Positions 18,674 through 42,042 of a stretch of DNA of 64,000 nucleotides are shown here, piece by piece. Every line of letters begins with the position of its first letter. Positions within the stretch are counted from its first letter, which is position 1. The DNA is from Candidatus Binataceae bacterium (lineage in GTDB: Bacteria; Desulfobacterota; Binatia; Binatales; Binataceae). The position numbers and the translations under genes were made by a program. The notes under the pieces are model-generated. The model saw nothing but the letters and a program-made list of their open reading frames with translations. It ran no database searches and was not told where the DNA came from. Location of the stretch: contig JASHOJ010000187.1 in the NCBI GenBank assembly GCA_030041155.1, forward strand, positions 1,446 to 65,445. Direction: 5' to 3'.

Positions 18674-18771
18674 GACCGGCTTGCCTCATGCTTCGTCGCC
18701 GACCCTCTTACAGCATCCAGAATCCCCGATGAAATAACTCTGAGACTCTGAACTTTTGTAAGTGTGAAATC

Positions 18772-18801: not shown

Positions 18802-18822
18802 GCGCCTCGACGTCCAAATATT

Positions 18823-20132: not shown

Positions 20133-20140
20133 GCGCGCAT

Positions 20141-21902: not shown

Positions 21903-22126
21903 AGTGCGAGATGAAGTGCGATCAGAATCCGTCGCTGAAGGGGGATAAAAACGCTGGGTGCAGACGCCAAATAGGTGAAAACCCGGCATAGAGTGCACCT
22001 AAGGGAGTGACTGGCAGTCTTACCCCTCGAAAGATCCGGAGTGCCGAGACCGTCCTGGGAGTGGTCCAGGCGTGAGCGCTGATGTGTTTTACCGGAAAAT
22101 CGGTAAGACAGCGCCATACTGTATGC

Positions 22127-22155
22127 TTGACAATCGCTGAAATACGACGTACAGT
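22127..22155 (+). promoter_or_regulatory. Sigma70-type promoter of the DGQHR/SNF2/MTase operon
   Basis: TTGACA (22127-22132), a 17-nt spacer, then TACAGT (22150-22155). The AAGGAG RBS (22174-22179) lies 7 nt before the ATG at 22187. Confidence 0.4.
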
Positions 22156-22186
22156 CTGTGGAGTTTTGACGCAAAGGAGCTATACA

Positions 22187-23308
22187 ATGATCCTTTCATT
22201 TCCGGCGATGCGAGGGCACATGGGCAGGCGGGATTACTTTGTCACGATGGTGAAGCTCAGCCTGGTCCCCAAGCTGTTCAAATTCCGCGACTGGGCAGAG
22301 TTGCCGCCCGAGCAGCGGGCGCAGCGCGTGATCCAGAAGAGCCGTATCCCGGAAATCACCCAGTACATTCTCGATAACGAGGACGGCTATCTGTTCTCCT
22401 CGCTGACAGCCTCCTTCGATTGCGAACCAACTTTCACGCCTGTGAAAGGTCGGGATGATCTAGGCACTCTCGAGGTGCCGTTCGACTCGGATCTCGTGAT
22501 CAACGACGGTCAGCATCGACGCGCGGCGATCGAAGAAGCTCTCACCCAAAATCCGAAACTTGGCGATGAAACAATCTCGGTCGTGCTCTTCCCGTTCGAG
22601 GATTTGGGGCGGATGCAGCAGATGTTTTCCGACCTGAATCGAACCGCGCGCACCACCTCTAAGTCGCTCAACATCCTGTACAACCAGCGCGATCTCATGA
22701 GCCAGATCACGCTGACCGCAACCGAGCGCATCGACGTTTTCAAGGGTCTCGTCGACAAGGACCGCGTATCGCTCGCACTGCGGTCGCCCAAGTTGTTCAC
22801 GCTTGCTGCGATATATGACGCCACCAACGCGCTGCTCGGGTCAGTAGTCGACGCCGACTACGACAATAAGTTAGCGCTGGCGCTTGAGTTCTGGGAGGTC
22901 GTGGCGGAAAACATGCCCGAGTGGGAAAAGGTGAAAAGCGGCGATCTGAGACCGATGGAGCTTCGACAGGAATTCATCCATTCGCATGCCGTCGTGCTAT
23001 GCGCACTCGGTTCGATGGGCCAGACGCTGATTTCCACCTATCCGGATGAATGGAAAGCGCAGCTTCGGGGTCTTCGCAAGATCGATTGGCGCCGAACGAA
23101 CAAGGAATGGCAGGGAATCGCGATGTCCGGAGCGGACGTAGTCAATCGGCGGCAGAACCGGATGGACACTGCGTCCTTTCTTAAGCTCAAGATGGGGTTG
23201 AAGCTGACGCCGGCTGAAGAGCGCTCCATCAAGGGCGCCACCGATATCTCGTTGATCATGAACGACCTGCGCAAGTTTGCGGGCGAGCCTGCGGCAGCGG
23301 AAAACTAA
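22187..23308 (+). CDS. DGQHR-domain protein, DndB-like (ParB/sulfiredoxin-fold)
   Basis: 'DSDLVINDGQHRRAAIEEAL' carries the DGQHR motif (22505-22519). 374 aa, DndB-like size. No dndA/C/D/E genes nearby. Confidence 0.75.
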   Translation: MILSFPAMRGHMGRRDYFVTMVKLSLVPKLFKFRDWAELPPEQRAQRVIQKSRIPEITQYILDNEDGYLFSSLTASFDCEPTFTPVKGRDDLGTLEVPFDSDLVINDGQHRRAAIEEALTQNPKLGDETISVVLFPFEDLGRMQQMFSDLNRTARTTSKSLNILYNQRDLMSQITLTATERIDVFKGLVDKDRVSLALRSPKLFTLAAIYDATNALLGSVVDADYDNKLALALEFWEVVAENMPEWEKVKSGDLRPMELRQEFIHSHAVVLCALGSMGQTLISTYPDEWKAQLRGLRKIDWRRTNKEWQGIAMSGADVVNRRQNRMDTASFLKLKMGLKLTPAEERSIKGATDISLIMNDLRKFAGEPAAAEN

Positions 23309-23323: not shown

Positions 23324-23605
23324 GTGGACGACTCAAGCCAGCTTGTCGCACAGTTTGAGAAAAACGCCAAAGAGGAAGTTCGAGTCAGCATCGACGAATT
23401 TCGCGGGCGAAAGATCATCAATATGCGAGTGTATTACCGGTCCGATAGCGGCAAGTGGCTGCCTGGCAAACAGGGGCTTGCGTTGGCTGTTGATCGCTAC
23501 CGTGATCTCGCCGATGCCGTTCTAAGGCTTGGCGAACGGCTGCAGTCGCAAGGCCTGTTGCCAAACGCCTCGATCTCGACCGGCTCACGGACAGAGGGCA
23601 AATAG
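23324..23605 (+). CDS. PC4-like (transcriptional coactivator p15 / YdbC-like) ssDNA-binding protein
   Basis: 'VRVSIDEFRGRKIINMRVYYRSDSGKWLPGKQGLALAVDRYRDLADAV' aligns by eye with human PC4 '[48 protein letters not shown]'. Confidence 0.55.
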   Translation: MDDSSQLVAQFEKNAKEEVRVSIDEFRGRKIINMRVYYRSDSGKWLPGKQGLALAVDRYRDLADAVLRLGERLQSQGLLPNASISTGSRTEGK

Positions 23606-23615
23606 GGGACGGCCT

Positions 23616-26600
23616 GTGCCCAGCAAGCGATCAACAAGCCGCGAAGTCCGTGAGAATCCAACATCTGCGCAACCGGACCGAAAATCGGGCGGCGATGTTC
23701 TCGTCGTCGACAACAGCGACACCGATTGGAAGGTTCGTGACTACCTCCGAGAGTGGACGGAAATTGCTCATACCTTCGACATAGCTACGGGTTTCTTCGA
23801 GATCGGATCATTGCTGATGCTCGACGGCCAATGGCAGAAGCTCGACAAGATTCGCATCCTGATGGGAGACGAGGTATCGAAGCGCACGAAGAAGGCACTC
23901 GTCGATGGACTGATCGCCAAGGTAAAGTCCAAGCTCGACGACAGCATCGAACGTGAGAAGGAGTCTAACGATTTTCTAAGCGGAGTTCCCGCCATTGTTG
24001 ACGCCATCCGAAACCGTAAAATCGAGTGTCGCGCGTACACGAAAGACCGCTTTCACGCCAAGGCCTATATAACCCACGCGAAACTCGCGGTCGTTGGTTC
24101 AGCGGCGCTCGTGGGCTCAAGCAATTTCTCGGCGCCGGGCATCAGCCAGAACGTTGAGCTGAACATTCAACTCCGGCGCGAGGTTGAGCTGCTTCAGGAA
24201 TGGTTCGAGCGTCACTGGAAGGAAGCTGGAGACATTTCTGACGAGATCCTCAAGGTCGTCGAGCGGCAGGTCCGCGAGTACTTGCCGTTCGAGGTCTATG
24301 CGAAAGCCCTACTGGAGTACTTTCGCAACCACGAAATCTCAGCCGGCGAATGGGAACAGCTCCAGTCACGGATGTTCAAAGTCTTGGACCAGTATCAAAA
24401 GGAAGGATACCAAGCGCTCGTCAAGATCGCTCGTCAATACGGCGGAGCGTTTCTCTGCGACGGCGTCGGCCTTGGCAAGACGTTTGTTGGCCTGATGCTG
24501 ATCGAGCGTCTCGTGATGTACGAACGCAAGCGCGTGATGTTGCTCGTGCCCAAGGCCGCCCGCGAGTCTGTCTGGGAAGCCTCACTCAAGCGATACCTGC
24601 CGCATCTTCTTGGTGACTTCAGTAATCTCGTTGTCTTCAATCACACCGACCTTGGCCGAGGCAACGAATTCCCGGAGCGCTTTCAGCGGATGAAGGAACT
24701 CGCCGACGTGATCATCGTCGACGAGGCCCATCATTTCCGAAATCCAGGTGTTCGAGGCGGCGAGGACGCCCGTCCAGGAATTCGCAGGAAGGCAGAGGTC
24801 GCGCCCTCCCGCTACTGGCGCCTTTTCGAGATCGCCGAGGGCAAGACGCTTTTCATGTTGACGGCGACGCCCGTCAATAACAGCTTGCTCGACCTACAGC
24901 ACATGATTGAACTCTTCTCTCGTAGGCAGCCTGATTATTTCAAGGCAGCGCCGCTGGGAATCCATTCGCTTCCGGGGCATTTCAGGAAGATAGAAAACGA
25001 CCTTCTAAAGGCGCTTGGCGCTTCGAAGCCGAAGGACGACGGAGCGACGGAAACTAACGAAGTCGAAGCTGAGCAGGTTCTGTTTAGCGATGAACTGTTC
25101 CGGGCTCTCGTCGTACAACGCAGCCGTGCTTACGTACGCGAGAGTCAGAAGCAAGCCGGCGCCACCGAAGCTATCTTCCCGACGCGTGAAGACCCCAAGG
25201 TGGTGGAGTATTCGGTCAAGAAGACGTACGGGCGGGTCCTTGAAATGGTCGAAGCAGCCTTTTCGAAGAGCAAGCCCCTGTTCTCCTTGGCGATGTACTA
25301 CCCTTTGGCCTACTACAAGGGCGACGATACCACCATCAATCCTTTCGAGGAAAACCGTCAGAAACAGCTGGTGGTATTGATCCGGACCCAGTTCCTGAAG
25401 CGCTTTGAGAGCTCAGCGAAGGCGTTCGAGCTCTCTTGCGAAGCTCTGCTCCTCAAGCTCCTCGCTTTCATGACCAAGAACTCTGTGACCGATTCCGAAA
25501 AGCGTCGGCTTGAGCGATGGCGAGGACAGAACGCGGAGCTTCTCGGCTCGGTCAGACAGCACCAGTTGGAGCTGTTCGAGGAGGAACCGGAGCCCGATGA
25601 GGACGTTATCACCGAAGAAATGCTTGACGATGTCGAGGAGCTGTCTCGCGACGAATATAAGGTCGAAGAGATACTCGACGAGTCCCTCCTCGACATGGAC
25701 CAGATCGCGAAATTCCTTCAGGAACTTCAAAAGCTCAAGCCCGCGCAGGACGATAAGCTGCGAGCGCTGGCGCGTCTCCTCAAGACCGACAAGATTCTCA
25801 AATCCCACAAGGTCTTGATCTTCACCGAATTCATGGCGACTGCGCGATATCTGGCACGCGAGTTGGACAAGGCCGGCTTCGAAGGAGTCGATGAGATTGA
25901 CAGTGCCCGCAAGCGAAACCGTTCCGATGTGATTCGGCAGTTCGCCCCGTACTACAACGGTTCGTCCAGCGCCGAACTCGCGCAAGTCGGTCTTTCCGAG
26001 ACGCGCATCCTAATTTCGACTGACGTACTATCCGAAGGCTTGAACCTGCAGGACGCCGCTCGCCTGATAAATTACGACATCCATTGGAACCCCGTCCGAC
26101 TCATGCAGCGTATCGGTCGCGTCGACCGACGTATGAGCCCAGAAATAGAAGCACAACTCGTCGCCGATCATCCGGAACAAAAGCCGTTAAGAGGACAGGT
26201 CACGTATTGGAATTTTTTGCCGCCGGATGAACTAAATCTTCTGCTCAGCCTGTACAGCACGGTTTCCCACAAGACGCTGCGTATTTCGAAGACCTTTGGA
26301 ATTGAAGGGAAGAAGCTCCTCAAACCCGACGATGATTATGATGCGCTGCGAGACTTTATTCACTCCTACGAAGGTTCGACGACTCCCATCGAGAAGATGC
26401 ACCTTGAATATCAGCGGCTTCTCTCTGACTTTCCCGATTTGAAGGCGCGCCTCGACGTGCTTCCTGGGCGTGTATTCAGTGGAAAGCAGAACCTTAAGCC
26501 CGGAGCGCGAGGGGTGTTTTTCTGCTACGCACTCCCAACGCCGGCCGGTCCAGCCGAGCAGCGCGCAGAGGGCGAAGAGAACGGTTGGTCGGTGGAAAGG

Positions 26601-26840
26601 GGATACACCCGCTGGTTTCTCGCTGATCTCGACAGCGAGAAAATACTGGACGAGCCGTCTGAAATTATCGACTCCATCCGTAGCGATCCCGACACCCCGC
26701 GACGGGCGGTGTTGGACAAGGCTTTGCTTACCGAGACTCGTGTTCGGGTCGAAAAACACATCAAGAACACTTACCTCAAACAGGTACAAGCGCCGGTCGG
26801 AGTTAAGCCGTTGCTGAAAGCATGGATGGAGCTCAACTGA
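23616..26840 (+). CDS. PLD (HKD) nuclease-SNF2-family helicase fusion protein
   Basis: N-terminal 'DRFHAKAYITHAKLAVVGSAALVGSSNFS' HxK(x4)D(x6)GSxN motif at ~24050. SNF2 motifs 'GVGLGKT', 'IIVDEAHHFRN', 'LTATPVNN', 'LISTDVLSEGLNLQ', 'QRIGRVDR'. The track ORF begins at 23529 but overlaps the upstream gene; a GTG at 23616 lies 11 nt after the upstream stop. Start is uncertain. Confidence 0.8.
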   Translation: MPSKRSTSREVRENPTSAQPDRKSGGDVLVVDNSDTDWKVRDYLREWTEIAHTFDIATGFFEIGSLLMLDGQWQKLDKIRILMGDEVSKRTKKALVDGLIAKVKSKLDDSIEREKESNDFLSGVPAIVDAIRNRKIECRAYTKDRFHAKAYITHAKLAVVGSAALVGSSNFSAPGISQNVELNIQLRREVELLQEWFERHWKEAGDISDEILKVVERQVREYLPFEVYAKALLEYFRNHEISAGEWEQLQSRMFKVLDQYQKEGYQALVKIARQYGGAFLCDGVGLGKTFVGLMLIERLVMYERKRVMLLVPKAARESVWEASLKRYLPHLLGDFSNLVVFNHTDLGRGNEFPERFQRMKELADVIIVDEAHHFRNPGVRGGEDARPGIRRKAEVAPSRYWRLFEIAEGKTLFMLTATPVNNSLLDLQHMIELFSRRQPDYFKAAPLGIHSLPGHFRKIENDLLKALGASKPKDDGATETNEVEAEQVLFSDELFRALVVQRSRAYVRESQKQAGATEAIFPTREDPKVVEYSVKKTYGRVLEMVEAAFSKSKPLFSLAMYYPLAYYKGDDTTINPFEENRQKQLVVLIRTQFLKRFESSAKAFELSCEALLLKLLAFMTKNSVTDSEKRRLERWRGQNAELLGSVRQHQLELFEEEPEPDEDVITEEMLDDVEELSRDEYKVEEILDESLLDMDQIAKFLQELQKLKPAQDDKLRALARLLKTDKILKSHKVLIFTEFMATARYLARELDKAGFEGVDEIDSARKRNRSDVIRQFAPYYNGSSSAELAQVGLSETRILISTDVLSEGLNLQDAARLINYDIHWNPVRLMQRIGRVDRRMSPEIEAQLVADHPEQKPLRGQVTYWNFLPPDELNLLLSLYSTVSHKTLRISKTFGIEGKKLLKPDDDYDALRDFIHSYEGSTTPIEKMHLEYQRLLSDFPDLKARLDVLPGRVFSGKQNLKPGARGVFFCYALPTPAGPAEQRAEGEENGWSVERGYTRWFLADLDSEKILDEPSEIIDSIRSDPDTPRRAVLDKALLTETRVRVEKHIKNTYLKQVQAPVGVKPLLKAWMELN

Positions 26841-29800
26841 TGGCCTCTGCCCTGAGTGGTAACGCTAATCGCCTTCGCGACATCAAGACGTTCCCTTCAC
26901 TCGTCAAATACCTGCGCGATGACCTTGACTGGCCGATCGACAGCGATGACTTCGAGGATCTGACGTTCGAATGGGAGCCTGAGGAACTCGGGATCGACCC
27001 AGCAAGCGCGGCGAAGATTCAGGAGATCAAACAGCTTCGTCCTCTCAGCAGCGATCAACCTTGGGGCATCTTCTTCGTGAAGTTCGAGCCCCGGAGACTC
27101 CCAGTTGTCGCGCTGCGGCGGATCTTACGCGCCTTGGTCGTTCGCAAACGCGTTGCCACCGCTAAAGCTCAGCAGAAAACCTGGTCGCTCCACGACTTGC
27201 TGTTCATCTCAAGTTATGGCGAATCCGATCAACGGGAAATCGCTTTTGCTCACTTCGCCGAGGAACCGGAACTTGGAGATCTGGCGACGCTGCGGGTTCT
27301 CGGCTGGGATGAGGACAATGCCGAGGAACGCCTGCAATACACGGACGCAGTGCTGAGAGAGAAGCTTCGATGGCCGGATGACGACCGCGACTTGGATTCG
27401 TGGCGATCGCGATGGTCGGAAGCTTTTACCCTGCGTCCGGGAGAGGTAATTCGAACCGCCAAGGCGATGGCCGAACGTTTGGCGGAACTAGCCGTGAGAA
27501 TCCGTAAGCGGGTCATCGAGGTACTGAACTACGAGCGTGAGCGCGGACAGATGCGAAACCTATATGTCGCGTTCAAGGAGGCGTTGATCCACGACCTGAC
27601 CGAGGACGATTTCGCAGATACATACGCGCAGACCATCTGCTACGGTCTCCTGACCGCCCGCTTCTCCCGTCCGGCAGGCTTGATCGCGGAGAACCTGAAA
27701 GACATGGTGCCACCGAGTACCAATCCCTTCCTCCGGGAATTACTGGGTACCTTTCTCAAGATCGGCGGTCGCAAAGACAAGCTGGATTTCGACGAGCTTG
27801 GCATCACCGAAGTCCTTCAAACTTTGCACGCCGCCAAGATGGAAGAAGTAAGGCGCGACTTCCTCGAGCGGAATCCAGACGAAGACCCGACGATTCGCTT
27901 TTACGAAGATTTTCTCAAACAGTACGACCCCAAGAGGCGCACACAACGCGGGGTCTTTTATACACCACGCCCTGTCGTTTCTTACATCGTCCGCAGCGTC
28001 CACGAACTTCTCCAAAGTGAATTTGGACTTCCTGAAGGTCTAGCTTCGACCACTACCTGGGGCGAGATGGTGAAACGCCATCCCAGCCTGAAAATTCCCG
28101 AAGGAACAGCTCCCAGTTCGCCGTTCGTTCAGATCCTCGACCCGGCAGTTGGTACAGGGACCTTTCTCGTTGAAGTGATCGACATCGTCCACAAAACCAT
28201 GCTGGCCAAATGGGAAAGGGACGGTCGCAAGGCCCTCGAGATTCCGAAACTGTGGAACGAATACGTCTCGAGACATCTTCTTCCACGGCTTCACGGCTAT
28301 GAACTTATGATGGCTCCGTACGCCATTGCCCACATGAAGATTGGCCTGAAACTTCACGAGACCGGCTACCGCTTTGGCAGCGACGAGCGCGCCCGGATTT
28401 ACTTGACAAACTCACTGGAGCCGCCCCACGACTTTTCTGATCGGCTCGCGTTCGACGCTCCCGCACTTGCTCATGAGGCCAAAGCAGTCAACGCGATAAA
28501 GCGCGAACAACGGTTTACGGTAGTTATTGGTAATCCGCCTTATTCGGCTTCAATTTCGGAGCCCGACTGGCTCATGAAGGCACTGGAACAATGGAAGCAA
28601 GGTCTAAACGAAACGAAAATCGATCTTAATCGTGAAGAATGGAAGTTCCTTCGTCTGGGTCAGATCCTGTGTGGTAAAGCATCGCTCGGACTCCTGGGCT
28701 TCGTGATAAATCGTGATTACCTGGACGGCGTCGCGAAGCGAAAGATGCGAGAGAGCCTCCAAGAAAGCTTCCCCTACCGTCTGATTGTGGATCTAAACGG
28801 CGACGTAAAGGGCAACATCGCCGACCAGAACGTATTCGAGATTACGCAGGGTGTTTGCATAACGATCCTTTGCCGCGGCGATGGCGATCAGCATCGATTC
28901 TTTTCCGTTATCGGCAATCGGGACGAGAAATATTCCATTTTGTCGGATAAGGTGGCACTCGATCGGCATCTCATCAGTTTTACGCCAACGCCTCCATATT
29001 TTCGCTGGATTCCTCCCGCCGGACAGCGCTCGGCTGATGCTGAAAACGAGTATTTGCAATGGTATCCGGTCAACGAGCTATTTCAGGTCTACTCTTCCGG
29101 AATCCAAACCAAGCGCGACGGATTGTGTATTCACTTCAGCGAGAAAGATCTCTGGTCAACCGTAACCCGGCTGAATGAGCTCACTGTCGCCGCTGCTCGG
29201 AAAGAGTTTGACCTACCCCCGGACGGCCGAGATTGGACGGTCGCAGCGGCGAAAGCAGACATATCTGCATCCGGGCCGAACAAGCGATATATCACTCGTC
29301 TTCTGTATCGCCCATTTGATATCCGCTTTACCTACTGGACGGGACGCACGAAGGGTTTTGCCGCCTATCCGAGGCGTGAGGTTATGCAGCATGTTGTCGG
29401 CCGACACAATATAGGAATGATTTTCAATCGTCAGGTGGTCGGCGACGGCGTTTCTCACTTCGGGGTATCCCGTTTGCCCATTTGCCATGGCACGTTTTAT
29501 CTGGGGAACAAAGGGCAGGACTATTTCGCTCCTTTATTCATCGTAAGGGACGACCTTATCTCACGGTCAAACCCTCTCCTTGAGCCAAACTTTAGTACGC
29601 AGTTTGCGTCTGCCTTAGCGGACGTATGGAGGCGGACGGCTGATAAGCCAGCTCCTTCTGATGTCTTTAACTATGCCTATGCGGTCTTCCACAGTCCTAT
29701 CTATCGTAGGCGGTATGAAGAATTTCTGAAACGTGATTTTCCACGACTTCCGTTAACGGGGGACGCCAAATTGTTCCAAATTCTCGCGCGGCTCGGAGGC

Positions 29801-30193
29801 GAGCTTGTAGCCTTACATCTTATGGAGTCGGCGCTTCTGAATCGGCATTTGAGTGATTTTCTCGGCAGAAGGAGACCTGAGGTTGAAAGGGTCTCCTACG
29901 ACAACAAGACAATCTGGATCGACAAGGAGCAGGTCTGCGGTTTTCAGGGCGTGCCGGAGGTCGTCTGGGAGTTTCGCGTTGGGGGTTATCGGGTCTGCGA
30001 AAAATGGCTAAAGGACCGCAAGGGTCGCGTACTGTCCACGGAGGACATCGATCACTACCAGCGCATCGTCGTCGCTCTATCCGAGACTATTCGGCTCATG
30101 AAGGAAATCGACAAAGTCATCGAAAAACACGGCGGCTGGCCCGGTGCATTTTCCACTGACAACGTGGATTCGACCAGAAGCGCGAACGCGTAG
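26840..30193 (+). CDS. N6-adenine DNA methyltransferase, gamma-class, PglX/DrmMI/Eco57I-like (MTase plus putative TRD)
   Basis: Motif X 'GVFYTPRPVVSYIV', motif I 'LDPAVGTGTFLVEV', motif IV 'VIGNPPYSA' (NPPY at 28532-28543). N-terminal aromatic helix 'TYAQTICYGLLTARF' as in PglX. TGATG overlap with the upstream stop; an alternative ATG at 26822. Confidence 0.8.
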   Translation: MASALSGNANRLRDIKTFPSLVKYLRDDLDWPIDSDDFEDLTFEWEPEELGIDPASAAKIQEIKQLRPLSSDQPWGIFFVKFEPRRLPVVALRRILRALVVRKRVATAKAQQKTWSLHDLLFISSYGESDQREIAFAHFAEEPELGDLATLRVLGWDEDNAEERLQYTDAVLREKLRWPDDDRDLDSWRSRWSEAFTLRPGEVIRTAKAMAERLAELAVRIRKRVIEVLNYERERGQMRNLYVAFKEALIHDLTEDDFADTYAQTICYGLLTARFSRPAGLIAENLKDMVPPSTNPFLRELLGTFLKIGGRKDKLDFDELGITEVLQTLHAAKMEEVRRDFLERNPDEDPTIRFYEDFLKQYDPKRRTQRGVFYTPRPVVSYIVRSVHELLQSEFGLPEGLASTTTWGEMVKRHPSLKIPEGTAPSSPFVQILDPAVGTGTFLVEVIDIVHKTMLAKWERDGRKALEIPKLWNEYVSRHLLPRLHGYELMMAPYAIAHMKIGLKLHETGYRFGSDERARIYLTNSLEPPHDFSDRLAFDAPALAHEAKAVNAIKREQRFTVVIGNPPYSASISEPDWLMKALEQWKQGLNETKIDLNREEWKFLRLGQILCGKASLGLLGFVINRDYLDGVAKRKMRESLQESFPYRLIVDLNGDVKGNIADQNVFEITQGVCITILCRGDGDQHRFFSVIGNRDEKYSILSDKVALDRHLISFTPTPPYFRWIPPAGQRSADAENEYLQWYPVNELFQVYSSGIQTKRDGLCIHFSEKDLWSTVTRLNELTVAAARKEFDLPPDGRDWTVAAAKADISASGPNKRYITRLLYRPFDIRFTYWTGRTKGFAAYPRREVMQHVVGRHNIGMIFNRQVVGDGVSHFGVSRLPICHGTFYLGNKGQDYFAPLFIVRDDLISRSNPLLEPNFSTQFASALADVWRRTADKPAPSDVFNYAYAVFHSPIYRRRYEEFLKRDFPRLPLTGDAKLFQILARLGGELVALHLMESALLNRHLSDFLGRRRPEVERVSYDNKTIWIDKEQVCGFQGVPEVVWEFRVGGYRVCEKWLKDRKGRVLSTEDIDHYQRIVVALSETIRLMKEIDKVIEKHGGWPGAFSTDNVDSTRSANA

Positions 30194-30228: not shown

Positions 30229-33200
30229 ATGCCAACCCCCTACGTTCGTCATGTCTCAGTCCGAGTTCCCTGGCAGGATGCCGTGTGGAATGGTCACGTG
30301 TGCGATGATCCCTTGGCTAACAGTTCCTGTCTCGCCCTGCGGTTGATCGCCGAGAATCGAGACGACGAGGTCGAGCAAGGACTCGCGAAGGAAGCATTTG
30401 ACGGACTCTCGCCGGAGCAGATGCCGCCTTGTCTTAGGAGCAGTGCCGCGTTCCTGTCCCCTCACTCGTACACGTTTAAGAGTGTGATGGAGTACTCAAA
30501 ATGGAGCCGCGACCACAAGCACATTCTGCCGCGTTCGGTTCATCTTCCGGCGTTTGGAGCACTGCTGATCCCTTATCGTTGGATGCTAAAGGAGAGCGGG
30601 TTTCAAATTGCCGAGAGTCTCGAACTGGACGCACACGCGGAGCGCGAGCCAAATAGACCATCCTGGCTGGTGAACACGAGCTGGGTTCAGCACCAGGACA
30701 ATCAACGAACCCTCCTCGATGCGTTCGCGAAGCCGCTCTTAGAAGATGAAACGCTAGTGTTCTTCTACGCGCCACGAACGCCACTTTGCGATGACGAGCG
30801 CCGGGCGCTTCTCGGAGTTGCTCTCCTCCAGAAGAAGTCCGACCTAGTTGAGTATCCCTACGAAGGTGGCAATCCAAACGGCCGCCTTCAGGCGATGGTA
30901 TGGGAACGGCCCATTCAGCATTCGTTGCGGCCACGACGGAAGAAGGGGACGGGATTCAGCGGAGGTTTCGTGATGCCGTATCACGAAGTCCTGGCGCTCG
31001 CAGAGCGCGACCGAACGGTCGATCCCGCCGAATTCGTGGCGTTTGTTCCTAACGACGTGCGCGTGCAGTTCTCCTATGGCAGCGAGCATGTTTCCCATGG
31101 TGTGGCGGCAACCGTTTTGACCGCTTCGAGGAATGCGCTGGAAAAGATTGGAACAAAGCTTGAAGGGCCATGGACTAGCTACATCAGTTGGATTGACGAA
31201 CGCCTCTCTCGCCTTTGGCGCCTACAAGGTCCCGCGCCAGGACTTGGTGTGACGTTGTCGGCGCTCCATAAGGGGTTCAATGGAACATTGTTCGCGGTCG
31301 CACTCTCGGATGTTCTCGGCGAAAACGAAGATCCATGGTCGGTCGTAGATAGGGTCCTATCGGGAGCACAGGACGCACCGCCCGGAGCACCGAAGATTAC
31401 GACAGTTCTTCGCCGACGCTGGGCTAACGTCAAAACCGATCCAAAGAGACTCGCGGCGCTGAAACTCCTCGCGCGCTTCGAACTGACAAATGATCAAGCT
31501 GATCGAGCTGTGAACGATTCTGAGCCTGCAAGGCTGTTGGGCAACCCTTACGTGTTATACGAGGACGATCGCAAAAGTTTCGACAGGGTGTCCTTTGCGA
31601 CGATCGATCGTGGTCTTTACCCAGGTGCTGAAATCGCCGCCGCGCATCCGCTATCTGCGGAATGCGACCGCAGTCTCGACGAACCGGACAATCCACTCCG
31701 CCTACGGGCCGCTTGTGTCCATATTCTCGAAGAGGCCGCTGCCCAGGGAGACACTATTCTACCTGCGGACCGTGTCAAAGATGCATGCGAGAAGCTGACT
31801 CTTTCCCGGCCGTTGCCTCTCGACGGCGAGTTGCTCGATATATTCCGAGACGATTTCAGGCCCGTAATTCAGGTCGGCGGTGAAAGGACGAAGCCGACCG
31901 CTCAACTGGAGCGATACGTTCACTATCGTGAAATCATCGAGCAGGCGGTCAAAAGCCGCCTCAAATCCAAGCCGAAGAGAGTCGTCGTCGACTGGAAAGC
32001 CTCTTTAATCCGCAAATTCGGGAAGCCCAGGCCGGGCGACGTCGATGAACTGCGCGCACGGCAGGAGAAAGAGGTTGCATTGGATCGGCTTACCGCAAGC
32101 CGAATCGCCACTTTGGTTGGCCCGGCGGGCACGGGTAAAACGACTGTCCTTGAGCTCTTGCTCCAGCAGGATGCGGTGGTCGGTACTCGGGTTCATCTTC
32201 TGGCGCCGACTGGGAAAGCCCGTGTCCGTCTCGCTCAGGAGACTAACCGACCCGGAGAGGGCGAAACCATAGCGCAATTTTTGTTGGCCTTGGAACGGTA
32301 CGACAAAGTGACGGGCCGCTATTTTCCCAATCCTTCAGCCGCTAAAGCCGAAGCGACGACCTGCATCGTCGATGAATCTTCGATGATGACCGAAGACATG
32401 CTGGCGGCCATCACCGATGCAATACCTGATAGTTGTCGTCTGATCTTGGTTGGAGACCCGTATCAGCTTCCCCCGATCGGCGCGGGGTGCCCGTTCGTGG
32501 ACATTATTGAGTTTCTCCGCCACAACCATGCGGAGGCCATAGGTGAACTAACAGTACCAAGACGGCAGGACACCAGCTCGCAAGACGGCCGTCGAACGAC
32601 CCCGCTAGAGCGATCGGACGTTCAACTCGCTGCGATCTTCTCTGGACGTGCGCTCCTTCCAGGTGAAGATGAAATCGCCGCTCGAATATTGACTTCTGCT
32701 GATGACGAATTTGTGAAGTGTCGCCGATGGGATCAGACGGCCGAGCTGCCGAGCCTTCTCAGAACGATCTTCAAAAAAGAATTCAGTGCGAACGATGACA
32801 CCCTACAGAGCAAGTTTGAAGAATTCCTTGGTGCAGTCACAAACCAGAAGGGATACCTCAACTTTGAAAATGGTTGTTCCGACGGGGCGTCCGATTGGCA
32901 GATCCTGTGCGTTACCAAAACTCAGCCCGGTGGCTCCATCCACCTGAACCGCCACATTAAGGAGACATACCGCAGCGAATGGCTAGAGAAAGCGATCGAA
33001 TCAAATCACGTTCCACACTTTCGAGATTGGTTTAGATTCATTAAGCCGCGGGGCCCGGAGCAAATCACATACGGCGACAAGGTGATTTGCGTGCGAAACC
33101 ATTTTCGGGGTCCTTGGATATATGCTGAGAGAACGAGAGGTCCCGAAGATGAATATATAGCCAACGGCGAAACCGGCATAGTGGTTGGACAGTGCGCCTA

Positions 33201-34017
33201 TGGTAAAAGCAATCCTCGCTTTACGCACGTGGAGTTCTCCGGGCGACCTGATCGCTCGTTCAGCTTTGGCCCTGGCGCCTTCCGCGAAGAAGGGCAGCCA
33301 TATCTTGAACTTGCTTACGCGATAACTGTCCACAAAGCACAAGGTAGCGACTTTGACACAGTGATTCTTGTGCTGCCGATGCAAAGCAGGTTGCTCTCTC
33401 GAGAGATGCTATACACGGCGCTGACCCGACAGAAGAGAAGAATCTGGATCCTGCATCAGGGGCCACTTGATAGCCTGTTGGCTTACCGCCATTACTCGTT
33501 CTCCGATATTGCAGCACGCTTCACGAACCTCCTACGCGAGCATCGACCACAGCAAGTGCCCAACCCAGTCGGCCTCCCGTCGGGTCTCCTGTCATTAAGC
33601 AGAGGGTTCCTCGAAGAACGCCTAGTCCATAGAACAGTTCGCGGTGAGATGGTTAGCTCTAAGTCGGAGCTCGCGATTGCCAATATTTTGTACTTACTCG
33701 AACGAGAGGGGCATTTGACATACGTAGTGGAGCCTCCATTGCCTTTTGCTGATAACGCAAAAGGCCGTTGGGCGGACTTTCAGATTAAATGTCGCAGCGG
33801 GACCTGGTATTGGGAGCACTGCGGAATGATGGATCACGAGAGCTATCGGCGGCGTTGGAAGCGGAAGGAGAGGCTATACCAGGAGAACGGCTTCACGCGT
33901 TACTCCGACGAGAATCCGTCTGGACACCTGATAGTCACAGAGGACGGATCGGGCCAGGGTCTGGACTCGCAGGCTATCGCCCTTCTGGCGCGCAAGCTCT
34001 TTGTCTCAGCGGATTAG
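30229..34017 (+). CDS. SF1 (RecD/Dda-like) helicase with unknown N-terminal domain and C-terminal DUF559/Vsr-like endonuclease fold
   Basis: Walker A 'LVGPAGTGKTTVLE', Walker B 'CIVDESSMM', 'YAITVHKAQGSDFDTVILVL' (SF1 motif VI region). C-terminal 'ELAIANILYLLEREGHLTYVVEP...ADFQIKCRSGTWYWEHCG' resembles DUF559/very-short-patch-repair nuclease domains. Confidence 0.7.
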   Translation: MPTPYVRHVSVRVPWQDAVWNGHVCDDPLANSSCLALRLIAENRDDEVEQGLAKEAFDGLSPEQMPPCLRSSAAFLSPHSYTFKSVMEYSKWSRDHKHILPRSVHLPAFGALLIPYRWMLKESGFQIAESLELDAHAEREPNRPSWLVNTSWVQHQDNQRTLLDAFAKPLLEDETLVFFYAPRTPLCDDERRALLGVALLQKKSDLVEYPYEGGNPNGRLQAMVWERPIQHSLRPRRKKGTGFSGGFVMPYHEVLALAERDRTVDPAEFVAFVPNDVRVQFSYGSEHVSHGVAATVLTASRNALEKIGTKLEGPWTSYISWIDERLSRLWRLQGPAPGLGVTLSALHKGFNGTLFAVALSDVLGENEDPWSVVDRVLSGAQDAPPGAPKITTVLRRRWANVKTDPKRLAALKLLARFELTNDQADRAVNDSEPARLLGNPYVLYEDDRKSFDRVSFATIDRGLYPGAEIAAAHPLSAECDRSLDEPDNPLRLRAACVHILEEAAAQGDTILPADRVKDACEKLTLSRPLPLDGELLDIFRDDFRPVIQVGGERTKPTAQLERYVHYREIIEQAVKSRLKSKPKRVVVDWKASLIRKFGKPRPGDVDELRARQEKEVALDRLTASRIATLVGPAGTGKTTVLELLLQQDAVVGTRVHLLAPTGKARVRLAQETNRPGEGETIAQFLLALERYDKVTGRYFPNPSAAKAEATTCIVDESSMMTEDMLAAITDAIPDSCRLILVGDPYQLPPIGAGCPFVDIIEFLRHNHAEAIGELTVPRRQDTSSQDGRRTTPLERSDVQLAAIFSGRALLPGEDEIAARILTSADDEFVKCRRWDQTAELPSLLRTIFKKEFSANDDTLQSKFEEFLGAVTNQKGYLNFENGCSDGASDWQILCVTKTQPGGSIHLNRHIKETYRSEWLEKAIESNHVPHFRDWFRFIKPRGPEQITYGDKVICVRNHFRGPWIYAERTRGPEDEYIANGETGIVVGQCAYGKSNPRFTHVEFSGRPDRSFSFGPGAFREEGQPYLELAYAITVHKAQGSDFDTVILVLPMQSRLLSREMLYTALTRQKRRIWILHQGPLDSLLAYRHYSFSDIAARFTNLLREHRPQQVPNPVGLPSGLLSLSRGFLEERLVHRTVRGEMVSSKSELAIANILYLLEREGHLTYVVEPPLPFADNAKGRWADFQIKCRSGTWYWEHCGMMDHESYRRRWKRKERLYQENGFTRYSDENPSGHLIVTEDGSGQGLDSQAIALLARKLFVSAD

Positions 34018-34152: not shown

Positions 34153-35298
34153 ATGGGGATTGCGAGCTATCAAGAAGACGATTTTGAGCGCTATACAGAC
34201 GCTCACTGGCGGGAGCTTAAATCCGCGCCCCAGGACCGACTTTATTTCTGCGATGTCTGTCGGGCTGAGTTCGCGAGCGAAGAGCAACGTGATCTACACC
34301 GGAGCGAGGTGCACTTGGCCGCGATTCCGCTGCTGCTGCTTGGAAATGTGGCGGCCCCCCACGAAATCCGGATCCGCAATCACAAGATGGCGGAGCAAGT
34401 CGGATTTCAAAACTGTCGCAAGCTTTCGGTTGCTCGCGACGGCCTTAGGCCGGTGCCCTACACCCCGACCCGACTGAAAGCCGAACTCGCGAAGGCCAAC
34501 CAGAGCCACTACCTGGTCCGTCCAGATGGTAGCGATGAGGAATACGTGATCTCCGTCCAGATTCCGGAAGCAGCGGTGCTGCGCGAAATTGATAGGACAT
34601 TCGTCGAATTGCTAGCAGTCGAAGCGCCGCGCGTTCAGGACATTGCCCGCTTCCGCGAAGTTGCCGCATCCATCGGTCGGGTCGGCGAATACAGCGGTGC
34701 GTTAGCTGATTACGTTATGGGCACGATCATCAAGGATCGGGATCACGCGCGCGGCGCCACGCTCGATTTTAATGAGTACAAGCCGAAGTACGAGTCCGCG
34801 CGCGCCATCCTTTTTGATTATGTGAAGGACGAGAGCCACCGCCCACCCGTCCCAGAGGCGGTCTGCGCGTCCATCAATTTTGGTCTTAACCAGTTTGACG
34901 GAACCTATCGTCCCGTCGGGATTCGGCTTCTCGACGACTGTGTCAGGTTTCTACTGCCACTTCTCGGTCCGACTACCAAGCTGCCAGACTTCACGCTCGT
35001 GTCACCCAGCCGGCATGGTGCCCCGATCTGTCCGCTCGATGGTGGCACGCATCATGTGCTGCAGGCCTTCGAGCGGATCAGCCTCAGCTCCGGTCGGTCA
35101 TTAGACGTGCTTCGGGAAGAGGCGGAAAAGGCCGAAAGCACCCTGCTTTCCGAGTATGACCGTGCGAAGCTTTACACGTTTACGGCGGTGGGACTTTTAA
35201 AGGCGGGCGATCGCAGCTCCTCTAAAAAGATACTCGCGCATCTCGTGAACGATTTTACTTTTAGCCGATGGGCCGAAGCTCAACTCTATTCCGCATGA
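34153..35298 (+). CDS. Hypothetical protein with N-terminal C2H2-type zinc finger
   Basis: 'YFCDVCRAEFASEEQRDLHRSEVH' is a perfect C-x2-C-x12-H-x4-H pattern. 381 aa, first gene of a coupled trio. Confidence 0.5.
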   Translation: MGIASYQEDDFERYTDAHWRELKSAPQDRLYFCDVCRAEFASEEQRDLHRSEVHLAAIPLLLLGNVAAPHEIRIRNHKMAEQVGFQNCRKLSVARDGLRPVPYTPTRLKAELAKANQSHYLVRPDGSDEEYVISVQIPEAAVLREIDRTFVELLAVEAPRVQDIARFREVAASIGRVGEYSGALADYVMGTIIKDRDHARGATLDFNEYKPKYESARAILFDYVKDESHRPPVPEAVCASINFGLNQFDGTYRPVGIRLLDDCVRFLLPLLGPTTKLPDFTLVSPSRHGAPICPLDGGTHHVLQAFERISLSSGRSLDVLREEAEKAESTLLSEYDRAKLYTFTAVGLLKAGDRSSSKKILAHLVNDFTFSRWAEAQLYSA

Positions 35299-36407
35299 AT
35301 GACAAGAATATCCAGCAAAACGCTGCTGAAAAGACGGCTGCCGGCACCCGAGACAGCTCGCAGGCACACGATGATAGCTCTCACGCCGAAGGACCGTCAT
35401 CCCCCAGGCTGAATCAATCGGATGTCGGGGGTGCCCACATTCCTTCGGGACCGAGCCCAATGTCGGCTCCATCGCTTACAGGTTATTACTCAGCGCGGCG
35501 CGGCCAGCCGGGGGCCCTCGTTAAGGCGCTTCGCCTGGGACCCGGCACAGGGTTTCCGGATACCGAGCGACAAACAATTCTCGCCGATATCAGCCGACTT
35601 GATCCGTATCTAGCGAAGTCTGTCACTCTGGCCCAAGCTGCAACGGACGTGGCAAAAGATCGGGCCGTCTTTGATTGGATCGGTGAACTCGTCGTTTACG
35701 AACTCCGAGGTCATTGGGCGCCGGAAGCGGGCCTCTCCGCCGCAGAAACGTTCGATGAGATCTCCCGCTCGATACGCGCCCAGATGCAGCGAAAGGAAGC
35801 TCGCAAAAAGGGCTTCAACCTGCTGCTAACCGCACTCGCCTGGCTTGCGCCTCGCGGCCTCCAGCCCGAGGACGCTCTGAGAGCGATCGAACACGCTCTC
35901 ACCGTTGCCAAGCGGAGCAGCATTACAAGCGACGAGCGGCAGCGCCAAGCGATGGCAGAGCTGGTGAAGATCAAAGCCAGCCCCAAGCTTCTCAAGGCGT
36001 TGCTCCAGATTCTCGCTCCCTGGCGCACGCGTACTCTCGAGGTCGAAGCACAAGCCGCCGCGCACCGCGAAGAAGTGGCCGCCCTAAATTCCCGAATACA
36101 AGCGTTGGAAGGACGCGTTACGGAATCCAGGGAACTGACGACAAATCTCGAGGCGCGACTGGCGGATCACGGCCGTCTGCTTGAAGACCGTGAGCGTAGG
36201 CTAAGCACACAGCACAATCTTGCCCAATCGCAGCTGGCCCTTACTAGGGGAACGATTAACGGTTGGCTCGAAAACGAAGTGCGACCGCGCCTGGCAGATG
36301 CATTGGATGCGGTCGAGTGCGAGCCCCCGCGCCACGAGGTCTTGCGCGAGCGCTTAAAGGCGGTCCTGGCTTTGCTTGATCAGAAAAAAGGGGGGCACTG
36401 GGGATGA
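35295..36407 (+). CDS. Hypothetical protein, disordered N-terminus plus long C-terminal coiled coil
   Basis: ATGA overlap with the upstream stop. The C-terminal ~150 aa have heptad-like spacing (..AALNSRIQALEGRVTESRELTTNLEARLADHGRLLEDRERRL..). Confidence 0.45.
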   Translation: MNDKNIQQNAAEKTAAGTRDSSQAHDDSSHAEGPSSPRLNQSDVGGAHIPSGPSPMSAPSLTGYYSARRGQPGALVKALRLGPGTGFPDTERQTILADISRLDPYLAKSVTLAQAATDVAKDRAVFDWIGELVVYELRGHWAPEAGLSAAETFDEISRSIRAQMQRKEARKKGFNLLLTALAWLAPRGLQPEDALRAIEHALTVAKRSSITSDERQRQAMAELVKIKASPKLLKALLQILAPWRTRTLEVEAQAAAHREEVAALNSRIQALEGRVTESRELTTNLEARLADHGRLLEDRERRLSTQHNLAQSQLALTRGTINGWLENEVRPRLADALDAVECEPPRHEVLRERLKAVLALLDQKKGGHWG

Positions 36408-38260
36408 TTTTCGGCCTCGACTTTGGAACCACGAATTCGCTGGTGGCTCTGGTACAGGGTGACCGCGTAATCCATTTTCTGGACGGCAACGAGCCACATC
36501 CATCCGTAGTGTGGTACCGAAGCGGTGACGCTACTGTCGTTGGCCGGATCGCAAAAGAAAACCTGGGGTCGCGCCAGAGTGGCGTCATCGGTGACTTTGT
36601 GCGGTCGCCGAAATTCAATCTGGGAAAGGGCCATCCGGTGTATGTAGCTGGCCGGAACTTAGCGGCCAGCGATGTTGTGTCAGAAATTTTAGCGTTTCTA
36701 CGCAATGACGTAATGCGAGAAGAGCGCGGCCTGAAGGATATCAGTTTCGAGCGCGCCGTGGTCACAATTCCAGTCACCATGCATGGTCCGGCTCGGCAAG
36801 AATTACGCGAAGCCGCGCACAAGGCCGGACTTCGAATCCACCAGTTCGTTCACGAACCGCTCGCCGCTCTTTATGGCCATCTCCGCGCGCATCCTGATTT
36901 CAGACGCCGAATCGCCGAGCTCGAGAACAAAGTTGCTCTGGTTTTCGATTGGGGCGGTGGCACTTTGGATCTGACGCTCTGCAAGTTCATGCGCGGCAGT
37001 TTGGTACAGATCGCGAATCGTGGTGATACCGACGTAGGAGGCGACCGGTTCGACGAGGCAATCGCCGATTGGGTGCGTGAACGCCACAGAAGGCAACACT
37101 CCTTGCAGTCTGGCCGAGAGGACACCGAACTCGCCAAGGCCCGATTGATCGAGCAGTGTGAGCTCGCAAAAAAACAGCTTTCAATTCAAAACAGTACATT
37201 CATCTTTGTCAGAGACTTCATTCAGCGGTCTAGTCCAGAACACACACTCCAGGTAGCCATAACGGCCGACGACCTGAGCACTATTAGCGATCGCCTCGTC
37301 ACTCAGGGTCTCGAAAATATCGACAAGCTTCTGTCTTCGGCCGGCTATGATCAAAGGTCAATTGCATTTTGTCTGGCGACCGGAGGAATGTGCCGCGTTC
37401 CCTTTATTCAGCGGCGTCTTCAAGAAAAATTTGGCTTCGACCGTGTTGAAGCTCCGGAACATGCCGAATGGCTTATCGCCGACGGCGCAGCCTGGATCGC
37501 TCATGATGGCCTTCCCCTGGAACTGGCCAAGCCTTTCGAGCTTTATCACGCGGACAACACATACGTGCCGATACTGCACGACAAGCGAAGACTCCCAATC
37601 GAGAACGTCCAAGAATCGCCGGTATCGCTCCAGGTCTATTGCGTCGACCCGAGAGACGGTCTCGCTAAGCTCCAATTTGCGCGCCCAACCTGGCCGGGTC
37701 GCACGTCGCCTTCTGATCCGCGCCAGATCTATACGACCCAGACTCTCAAGGTCGACCCCAATGCTCCGCCATTTGTCGAACGAATCATGCTCGACATCAC
37801 GATCGATCACAACCTGGTTGTCAGCGTTCGCGCCAGATCTGGTGAGGACGACAAACTTACTGAGGTGCATGACCTGGAATTCGGCTTGCATCTCGGCCCA
37901 GCGTCAAACGCGGGGTCGTCCGATCGGGCCGGAGGAGGTTCGTCCAGTAACGACCCGCTACCCACTGCAAGCAATCAGACCATAGGGGCGGTCCGGATTC
38001 GATCCAACGTCCTTCTTCAGAGTCATGAAATAAATGGCGGTTATCGCTGGGACTTGGTTCCAGGTGACATTGTCGAGCAATACTCTCCTCGCTACTGGCC
38101 AATCGTCCTTAACGCGCGCCAAATAGGCGAGAAAATGTATTACGTCCCGTGTGCATTGTGTCACCAAGGAATCTACGAAATTATGCTTCGAGGATGCAGC
38201 GAACCACGATGTCCGGAGAGCCGCAGATCCCATCCCACGACCCAGTCGGCGCGGCACTAA
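36404..38260 (+). CDS. Hsp70/DnaK-like actin-fold ATPase (non-canonical, 618 aa)
   Basis: 'MIFGLDFGTTNSLVAL' phosphate-1 motif, 'LVFDWGGGTLDLTL' (DLGGGTFD-like), 'FCLATGGMCRVPFIQ' adenosine motif. The C-terminal 230 aa are unlike a DnaK substrate-binding domain. ATGA overlap with the upstream gene. Confidence 0.75.
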   Translation: MIFGLDFGTTNSLVALVQGDRVIHFLDGNEPHPSVVWYRSGDATVVGRIAKENLGSRQSGVIGDFVRSPKFNLGKGHPVYVAGRNLAASDVVSEILAFLRNDVMREERGLKDISFERAVVTIPVTMHGPARQELREAAHKAGLRIHQFVHEPLAALYGHLRAHPDFRRRIAELENKVALVFDWGGGTLDLTLCKFMRGSLVQIANRGDTDVGGDRFDEAIADWVRERHRRQHSLQSGREDTELAKARLIEQCELAKKQLSIQNSTFIFVRDFIQRSSPEHTLQVAITADDLSTISDRLVTQGLENIDKLLSSAGYDQRSIAFCLATGGMCRVPFIQRRLQEKFGFDRVEAPEHAEWLIADGAAWIAHDGLPLELAKPFELYHADNTYVPILHDKRRLPIENVQESPVSLQVYCVDPRDGLAKLQFARPTWPGRTSPSDPRQIYTTQTLKVDPNAPPFVERIMLDITIDHNLVVSVRARSGEDDKLTEVHDLEFGLHLGPASNAGSSDRAGGGSSSNDPLPTASNQTIGAVRIRSNVLLQSHEINGGYRWDLVPGDIVEQYSPRYWPIVLNARQIGEKMYYVPCALCHQGIYEIMLRGCSEPRCPESRRSHPTTQSARH

Positions 38261-38303
38261 ACCTTTGATCGCAATAATAGTGACTGCCCTTGAGTCATAG
38301 GCA

Positions 38304-39119: not shown

Positions 39120-39127
39120 GGACAGTA

Positions 39128-41574: not shown

Positions 41575-42042
41575 TTGAATTATACGCTTCAGCAGCTTCG
41601 GGACATTGTCGGTATTTCGGTGGAAACGTTCCGACATTGGCAGCGGGTAATCCCCGCTTTCTCTGCTCGAAAAGGACGTCGGGCGCGTTTTTCAACGGGC
41701 GATCTTATCGCCGCCGCGATAATTCGAGTCCTCACCGACGACTGCGGAATAAAAATTGGCCGACTGAAGGCAGCGAATCAGATCGTCTCGCTGTGCAATG
41801 ATAAATCATGGGCTCTTGATCGCAAGACCCTGGTGGTGAACCCAGCCGAAGGTAGTTGCCAGGTCGTTGGAGATCGGGGCGCTGGGGGCGACGGCTTCGT
41901 TGTCCTCTGCCCTCTCAAACCCATAATGAGCGAGCTGCGAGGCAAACTGTTGGACTCCGAAACGACCCGGGCACAGCGAGCCCTCGCCTTTCCAGTGATC
42001 GAGGTGAAGAGGAAAAACCAGACCTGGAGACGCGGACCATGA
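41575..42042 (+). CDS. MerR/AlpA-like HTH protein (putative regulator)
   Basis: TTG start. 'YTLQQLRDIVGISVETFRHWQR' resembles MerR-superfamily HTHs. ATGA overlap with the downstream MTase. Confidence 0.45.
   Translation: MNYTLQQLRDIVGISVETFRHWQRVIPAFSARKGRRARFSTGDLIAAAIIRVLTDDCGIKIGRLKAANQIVSLCNDKSWALDRKTLVVNPAEGSCQVVGDRGAGGDGFVVLCPLKPIMSELRGKLLDSETTRAQRALAFPVIEVKRKNQTWRRGP

Follow-up and report, generated by a model that had tools for sequence, protein, structure and literature searches.

Several enzymes unite a helicase and a nuclease in one polypeptide, among them RecB/AddA, Dna2 and the defence proteins Nhi, Hna, Hhe and DdmD, and their common design is a superfamily 1 or 2 motor joined to a PD-(D/E)xK-type nuclease. 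Candidates for further defence genes are provided by the PDC families, a set of 145 picked out by 'guilt-by-embedding' because their genes lie within BREX, DISARM or Type I restriction-modification (R-M) systems; these families entered PADLOC without validation (Payne et al., bioRxiv 10.1101/2024.01.29.577857), and most of them remain unvalidated. Here we describe one gene in a stretch of 64,000 nucleotides from Candidatus Binataceae bacterium (contig JASHOJ010000187.1, positions 1,446 to 65,445), which is called the window below. Judged by its sequence, the product of this gene is a typical member of PDC-S68, a catalogued and uncharacterised candidate family, and not a new kind of protein. 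With moderate confidence, we regard it as an autonomous single-polypeptide helicase-nuclease immune effector that is carried as cargo of a defence island on a conjugative element. The gene and its helicase motifs are intact, its C-terminal domain adopts a nuclease fold whose acidic residues are invariant, its modules are inherited together, and its mobility and neighbourhood could be followed in its relatives. The gene is located as follows.

30229..34017, + strand: complete gene, member of PDC-S68 (open reading frame, match to PADLOC PDLC05065, alignment with 66 relatives)

The open reading frame (ORF) is uninterrupted from the ATG at 30229, which is the first ATG downstream of an in-frame stop, to the stop codon at 34015-34017. 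All of the peptides quoted in a preliminary description, which had been made from the letters alone, were located in its product of 1262 amino acids, namely VRVPWQDAVWNGHVCDDPLANSSC at residues 11-34, GPAGTGKTT at 631-639, DESSMM at 715-720, VHKAQGSDFD at 1034-1043 and ELAIANILYLLEREGHLTYVVEP...WEHCG at 1147-1199. The PADLOC model PDLC05065 (PDC-S68) matched residues 5-1258 over model positions 4-1219 of 1221 (E=0, 1341 bits), and the sister models PDLC05066 and PDLC05064 scored 454 and 377 bits. The match to PDC-S68 (Payne et al., bioRxiv 10.1101/2024.01.29.577857) is thus full-length, with the same three-module architecture and no structural difference. Above 100 bits, the only other PADLOC matches were generic RecD-type helicase models (typeIV_RecD and RecD_like). 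Among the 16 PADLOC families found at E<=0.01, named systems were represented only by generic helicase-core matches (GajB, E=0.0099; MkoA, 4.6e-5), and no match was returned to models of Hhe, Nhi, Hna, DdmD or HamB, in so far as the PADLOC 2023 library contains them. The preliminary description had named an N-terminal domain that maps to a known component of a defence system as evidence against its reading, and this is half the case: the N-terminal domain, which that description could not place, does map to a defence candidate as part of this full-length match, and the family concerned is a catalogued one only.

Using the N-terminal region of the protein, we obtained 80 genomes with relatives, and in most of them the alignment extends from residue ~6 to residue ~1258. 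The relatives in 66 of the 80 genomes are full-length and uninterrupted and show 35-63% identity to the window protein; the conservation counts given below refer to these 66 unless stated otherwise. Because about 66 of the 80 genomes hold relatives that align end to end, we consider the gene to be real and intact. Our literature search found no published domain description of PDC-S68, and RefSeq labels the plasmid copies merely 'AAA family ATPase'. The family is likewise absent from those supplements of the defining preprint that were searched (bioRxiv 10.1101/2024.01.29.577857). The anatomy of PDC-S68 can now be described: a confidently modelled N-terminal module, a RecD2-like motor and a tail with a PD-(D/E)xK fold and candidate catalytic residues. 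Its parts are listed here from the N terminus to the C terminus.

30229..31098, + strand: alpha/beta subdomain, residues ~1-290 (AlphaFold2 model; no Pfam, PDB or Foldseek match)
31099..31668, + strand: all-helical subdomain, residues ~291-480 (secondary structure of the model, conservation)
31681..32028, + strand: RecD2-like pre-helicase region, residues ~485-600 (NCBIfam RecD2 model, weak HHH_RecD2 match)
32056..33468, + strand: superfamily 1B (SF1B) helicase core, residues ~610-1080 (Pfam, PDB sequence matches, invariant motifs)
33616..34014, + strand: PD-(D/E)xK-fold nuclease-like domain, residues ~1130-1262, ~135 amino acids (AlphaFold2 model, Foldseek, conservation)

A Pfam scan of the protein returned AAA_30 at residues 616-783 (97 bits; AAA_19 also matched here) and UvrD_C_2 at residues 1028-1074 (51 bits), and no family match for residues 1-600 or 1090-1262. 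The core can be assigned to superfamily 1B (RecD2/Dda/Pif1 type), since its best PDB sequence matches were RecD2 of D. radiodurans (3e1s, 4e-23), E. coli RecD, Dda and Pif1. These matches, together with motifs (Walker A and B, Ia, III and VI) that are identical in 66/66 relatives, bear out the placement of the core in the RecD/Dda group of superfamily 1 by the preliminary description. The invariant positions are G631, A633, G634, G636, K637 and T638 of the Walker A motif (G631-T638, nucleotides 32119-32142), motif Ia (APTGKA, 659-664), both residues of Walker B (D715-E716, nucleotides 32371-32376), G742, D743 and Q746 of motif III, the residues H1035-K1036-x-Q1038-G1039, and R1067. By analogy with known SF1B enzymes, the motor would have 5'-to-3' polarity. 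The likeness to RecD2 begins ahead of the core: the NCBIfam RecD2 model aligned from residue 485 onward (model positions 199-462), and a weak HHH_RecD2 match covered residues 485-509. The window protein thus shares the helicase core and all motifs with RecD2, RecD, Dda and Pif1, and with RecD2 also the region from ~485; however, all four lack its N-terminal module of ~480 amino acids and its C-terminal nuclease-fold domain. An orthologue of RecD2 or RecD was rejected on the scores (TIGR01448, 189 bits vs. a cutoff of 500; TIGR01447, 150 vs. 310). A conjugative relaxase-helicase (TraI/TraA/TrwC) was also rejected, as only the helicase core matched the TraA and TraI models, far under their cutoffs, and Pfam scans of the window protein and of family members revealed no relaxase domain.

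For the C-terminal domain, an AlphaFold2 model was built from 42 homologues. From residue ~1130 its core blocks have a predicted local distance difference test score (pLDDT) above 90, and the order of its elements is alpha-beta-beta-beta-alpha-beta; this order of helix, three strands, helix and strand is that of a PD-(D/E)xK core. In a Foldseek search of the PDB, the top matches included Bax1 (prob 0.89-0.95, E ~0.01), the restriction-like endonuclease (RLE) domain of the R2 retrotransposon, Hjc, RecU, the nuclease domain of DdmD, Can2, Cdn1, McrC, EcoT38I and PvuRts1I. Almost all of the matches are PD-(D/E)xK nucleases, and although their scores are weak, the class is consistent. In the model, then, the C-terminal ~135 amino acids adopt a PD-(D/E)xK restriction-endonuclease-like fold. 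In the Pfam search of residues 1085-1262, nothing was found at E<=10 but a sub-threshold match to DUF7200, and one family member (P0135) showed a weak match to the PADLOC model HEAT_CxxC_PD-DEXK (1.7e-5). A restriction-endonuclease-like fold is what the preliminary description had proposed for this domain, and its fold and conserved acidic residues were upheld, but the label Vsr/DUF559 attached to it was not. The corresponding model PF04480 matched neither the C-terminal domain of the window protein (E<=10) nor 42 family members (E<=1), and no recognisable Vsr or DUF559 entry was present among the top 50 Foldseek matches in the PDB. Hhe is an Upf1-like helicase with a DUF559 domain, and it differs from the window protein in this feature.

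The residues expected in such an active site are strongly conserved. Helix 1 carries S1144, K1145 (64/66) and E1147 (66/66); E1168 follows strand 1 (66/66); D1183 precedes strand 2 (66/66) and is itself preceded by P1182 in 61/66, with alanine in the window protein; E1196-H1197 lie in strand 3 (66/66); and helix 2 carries Y1206, W1210, K1213 (65/66) and Y1217. The signature appears to be E...PD...E-H, with a lysine that has possibly migrated, and the conserved K1145, H1197 and K1213 could stand in for the canonical one. Bax1, Hjc, RecU and the R2 RLE have the same core topology, with a glutamate on helix 1, an aspartate at strand 2 and a second glutamate in strand 3. However, they are only 10-18% identical to the window domain (E ~0.01), the position of their canonical lysine is occupied by leucine or cysteine in the PDC-S68 family, and nothing in them is established as equivalent to the conserved H1197 and K1213.

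The replacement of this lysine leads to another explanation, namely that the C-terminal domain has kept its nuclease fold but lost catalysis and serves only to bind DNA or to form oligomers; the protein would then not cut DNA itself but act as a translocase or sensor, blocking replication or calling in other nucleases. We consider this highly unlikely. The canonical (D/E)xK lysine is indeed absent, the structural similarity scores are weak, and no nuclease family hidden Markov model (HMM) matches the protein. Nevertheless, E1147, D1183 and E1196 stand at the canonical positions in 66/66 relatives across 35-63% identity, and with H1197 and K1213 they form a pattern commonly seen where an active site has been kept. 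Moreover, PD-(D/E)xK enzymes with migrated or substituted lysines are known. Thus the catalytic residues which the preliminary description thought might be lacking are conserved as far as the acidic ones are concerned, with the lysine replaced by leucine or cysteine. Catalysis by the modelled domain is likely but, because of this replacement at position 1198, not assured.

The domain also occurs outside the family. Four short proteins of 211-221 amino acids (P0105, P0116, P0122 and P0127) carry it with unrelated N-terminal extensions, and residues 1133-1223 weakly match positions 180-261 of the model of another PADLOC candidate, PDC-S69 (E 1e-5 to 1e-8). PDC-S69 and the free-standing proteins share the nuclease-like domain with the window protein but have only ~210-290 amino acids and neither helicase nor N-terminal domain. 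From these occurrences, the C-terminal domain may be an independent effector module.

The N-terminal module was modelled with high confidence (residues 1-590, 46 homologues; mean pLDDT 93.3, predicted template modelling score 0.89). Foldseek searches of this 590-residue model against the PDB and BFVD gave no match better than E=0.3, and for the helical subdomain at ~291-480 they gave only non-significant sub-matches of winged-helix type. A profile of 42 N-terminal domains retrieved only noise from the PDB sequences, as did Pfam scans of the N-terminal domain in 42 family members (NDUF_B12-like, E>=0.015). The preliminary description had recognised nothing in the first ~550 residues, and this still holds for Pfam, PDB sequences and both Foldseek databases, with an extent of ~480 amino acids. 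The small top matches, MJECL36 (2p5d) and a phage ASCH-domain protein (E~1), and the hint of a PUA-like barrel were not significant and were not relied on. Conservation in this module is nevertheless high. S10, R12, P14, W15, D17, G22, C25, P28, N31, C34, E49, P66, C68, E140, R192, W225, H231, F281-S282 and E286 are invariant (66/66), R234 (65/66) and H8 (64/66) are nearly so, and W321, G334, P337, G338, W370, R416 and D460 are conserved in the helical subdomain. The three invariant cysteines C25, C34 and C68, with His, Asp and Glu residues nearby, suggest a metal site. We also weighed an Fe-S cluster of the kind found in AddB, Dna2 and Cas4, but there are only three invariant cysteines and their spacing is different, and we keep to a possible metal site. 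An HUH relaxase centred on H96-x-H98 was rejected: H96 is tyrosine in 23/66 relatives, the middle residue is non-hydrophobic, and there was no relaxase HMM or fold match.

The three modules occur together throughout the family. An exhaustive profile search with the N-terminal domain returned 2,039 clusters (50% identity) at E<=1e-3, of which 537 reached E<=1e-30. Among the matches listed, the domain stands at the start of proteins mostly of 1215-1300 amino acids, and the C-terminal domain is present in 79 of 80 representatives of at least 1100 amino acids, so the three modules form one co-inherited unit. None of the 150 matches listed had the N-terminal domain in another architecture; all are family members, and they vary only by C-terminal additions. 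In one of them (P0178), an extra Schlafen AlbA_2 domain follows the nuclease fold at residues 1255-1390, and other variants of 1490-1560 amino acids have C-terminal extensions without a Pfam match. The hosts are Alpha- and Gammaproteobacteria, Actinomycetota, Bacillota, Cyanobacteria, Bacteroidota, Acidobacteriota, Planctomycetota, Verrucomicrobiota and Chloroflexota, and the archaea Methanolobus, Methanoregula and Bathyarchaeia. The distribution over these many phyla is very patchy, with at least 163 matches among 185,579 species genomes, a lower bound since one peptide pattern was used for the scan. The family was found on 23 plasmids and is nearly absent from viruses, where a single relative came from IMG/VR and two small contigs of uncultured origin matched at 25% identity. 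Methanolobus profundi Mob M has two full-length copies on separate contigs (L062 and L064), each 35% identical to the window protein. Many database copies are split into at least two ORFs; on the Sphingomonas plasmid pC33 (L082, 9348-12742), for example, an 'AAA family ATPase' and a 'RecD-like DNA helicase' overlap by 4 nucleotides. Such copies could be sequencing frameshifts in metagenome-assembled genomes from long reads or genuine pseudogenes.

The neighbours of the relatives were counted in the 59 loci having at least 3 kb of flank on both sides. A SNF2-type helicase (DrmD, BrxH or HKD-Snf2) lies within 6 kb of the gene in 15/59 loci, often with methylases; examples are DrmD in L007 (1002 bits), a BrxHI-like protein in L034 and, in L045, an HKD+Snf2 protein (C3a139) of the type found in the window. 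A type III Mod gene is nearby in 7/59 loci. In L066, L068, L073 and L079 the order is PLD-SNF2, DUF4391, the PDC-S68 gene, Mod, an unassigned gene (x) and Res. Relatives of the window's PLD-SNF2 protein occur near the gene in L020, L036, L045, L066, L068, L074 and L079, and in L092 a copy stands behind a split PLD and helicase pair, with GmrSD downstream. A copy on a B. cereus plasmid adjoins the DISARM genes DrmA and DUF1998, another sits ahead of a Type I R-M system, and some relatives sit among housekeeping genes. No recurrent neighbour was seen in 34/59 loci. The PDC-S68 cassette is therefore a single gene that occurs both alone and in or beside multi-gene defence systems (BREX, DISARM, R-M). 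On this genomic evidence, the pattern fits a defence gene that often settles inside or next to restriction systems; the PDC families owe their discovery to such embedding.

In the window, the gene follows three others on the same strand.

22082..23308, + strand: orphan DndB of the DGQHR/ParB superfamily, context (TIGR03233, 399 bits vs. a cutoff of 328)
23529..30193, + strand: two-gene split Type ISP-like R-M module, context and outside the unit (Pfam, PADLOC)
23529-26840, + strand: PLD(HKD)-SNF2 helicase, N-terminus resembling PbeA (Pfam, PADLOC)
26822-30193, + strand: methyltransferase with Type_ISP_C specificity domain, overlapping the PLD-SNF2 gene by 19 nucleotides (Pfam, PADLOC)

No dndC, dndD or dndE was found among the window genes scanned. 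The preliminary description had seen the helicase gene as the last of this operon and as a possible second effector, and in this form the gene would be the fourth of a DndB / PLD-SNF2 / methylase operon, a dependent effector whose task is to process the ends that restriction leaves on the DNA. The immediate arrangement is compatible with this: the gene starts 35 nucleotides past the methylase stop codon, no terminator-like or promoter-like site was found in the gap, and co-transcription with the methylase is therefore possible. In addition, the 15/59 loci with SNF2-type helicase and methylase modules, the insertion between DUF4391 and type III Mod in four loci, and the seven loci with a window-type PLD-SNF2 protein, together with the PLD and helicase pair of L092, all speak for such a partnership. 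However, comparison of the loci does not favour it. First, tblastn searches with the window DndB and methylase found no copy of either in any of the 80 PDC-S68 loci, and more than half of the 59 counted loci have no recurrent partner at all. Second, the five nearest relatives of the methylase (74, 67, 65, 64 and 61% identity) each stand behind a PLDc_2-SNF2-Helicase_C gene (fragmented in L088), but the PDC-S68 gene is present in 0/5 of these contexts, and so is DndB. What follows the methylase there is other cargo, namely housekeeping genes, DUF3800 (L085, 9977-10834), CBS with GmrSD (L087, 12345-15294), an insertion sequence (IS) element, or a CD-NTase/Cap15 CBASS with SIR2/HerA (L089, 12354-16665). 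Third, the closest PDC-S68 relative (88% amino acid and 85% nucleotide identity) has only the gene itself in common with the window; nucleotide similarity ends 4 nucleotides beyond the stop codon, and its downstream gene encodes a class III cyclase protein. Since the PLD-SNF2 protein and the methylase are kept together elsewhere without PDC-S68 or DndB, the conserved unit is the two-gene R-M module. The position behind the methylase would accordingly be a variable cargo slot, here filled by PDC-S68, and it appears to be a preferred site of accessory defence genes beside R-M modules of this type. By the same comparisons, the PDC-S68 gene moves independently of its neighbours. A dependent role in this operon is thus unlikely, and the earlier claim was not borne out.

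Some functional cooperation with SNF2 and methylase modules would be compatible with the partial association. In one form of it, the N-terminal module would have a fold not described before, in which a Cys3(+His/Asp) centre binds a metal; it would sense an infection cue, a DNA end or a modification state and in this way license the SF1B helicase-nuclease. As a portable 'restriction booster', the enzyme would have been recruited repeatedly to destroy DNA marked or cut by adjoining SNF2/methylase modules, which in the loci seen are DISARM, BREX-like, type III and split Type ISP systems. RecBCD, which acts after restriction, would be the analogue. We regard this as a speculative and rather improbable form of the proposal.

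The element that carries the gene bears on a further explanation.

2770-21091, - strand: complete conjugative transfer module (TrwC to ArdC homologues)

This module encodes a TrwC relaxase-helicase (2770-5553), a TrwB coupling protein, TrbI/VirB10, CagX/VirB9, TrbL/VirB6, a VirB4-like ATPase, a VirB11-type ATPase, an HTH protein and an ArdC anti-restriction protein (ArdcN with a metallopeptidase domain), and from this gene content the window is part of a conjugative plasmid or an integrative and conjugative element. The PDC-S68 protein might then be an enzyme of repair or recombination, or a DNA-processing helicase-nuclease of the mobile element, comparable to RecD2, Dna2 or AddAB and unconnected with immunity. 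Its RecD2-like core, its location on a conjugative element, the 23 plasmid copies and the relatives among housekeeping genes are all in agreement with this. On the other hand, the core scores far under the RecD2 and RecD equivalog cutoffs given above, and the very patchy distribution over many phyla does not fit a housekeeping function. Moreover, the element has its own transfer helicase in TrwC, beside the coupling protein, and Pfam and NCBIfam scans detected no relaxase domain in the window protein. The repeated adjacency of relatives to DISARM, BREX-like and type I and type III R-M genes also argues against this explanation, which we consider decidedly unlikely.

We therefore return to an autonomous immune effector as the preferred explanation. 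In this proposal, the RecD2-like SF1B motor, driven by ATP, would translocate 5'-to-3' on one strand of the DNA of an invading replicon, which the C-terminal PD-(D/E)xK domain would cleave, and the N-terminal module of ~480 amino acids, which may bind a metal, would select the substrate or license the enzyme. The defence role, the DNA substrate, the polarity, the nuclease activity and the sensing or licensing role of the N-terminal module are what we infer. Several points weigh against the proposal. What we suggest for the N-terminal module is pure conjecture. The Foldseek matches of the C-terminal domain are weak (E ~0.01, template modelling score 0.3-0.4), the family profile of this domain recovered from the PDB sequences only the helicase end and no solved nuclease, and the canonical lysine at position 1198 is leucine in 42 and cysteine in 24 of 66 relatives. 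A literature search for 'PDC-S68' by name found no paper, hence no experiment on the family, which is also not among the PDCs tested in a cold-seep study (PMC12881386). Finally, among the neighbours scanned for defence genes, no recurrent defence neighbour was seen in more than half of the loci.

A helicase-nuclease in a defence island is unsurprising to a specialist. The combination of an SF1B motor with a C-terminal nuclease and the N-terminal domain is an architecture distinct from that of the helicase-nuclease fusions named at the outset. If active, it would add a new class of helicase-nuclease to the defence repertoire, together with a new sensor or regulatory domain. Two features make it worth following. 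The large conserved N-terminal module is without a detectable relative, and the cassette, although independent, recurs beside SNF2/methylase systems: roughly one locus in four has SNF2-type helicase genes next to it, often accompanied by methylases.

In the window, the PDC-S68 gene lies in a cargo region of lower guanine-plus-cytosine content with other defence-like genes. Downstream on the + strand, five tightly packed and partly overlapping ORFs occupy 34153-40297. Two of their products (381 and 379 amino acids) have no match in Pfam, PADLOC or NCBIfam, and a 618-amino-acid protein shows only an Hsp70/actin-like ATPase domain, far under the DnaK cutoffs; the other two, scanned against Pfam only, are an FRG-domain protein and a protein of 403 amino acids without a Pfam match. 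Together these ORFs could constitute an Hsp70-like system of the island that has yet to be described. Further along the + strand, 41856-45128 encodes a second large protein of N6_Mtase/Eco57I type (1090 amino acids), and 47647-48753 encodes a protein of 368 amino acids whose RelA/SpoT nucleotide-pyrophosphokinase domain may mark it as a small alarmone synthetase toxin or a CapRel-like protein. Both are candidates for further defence cargo.

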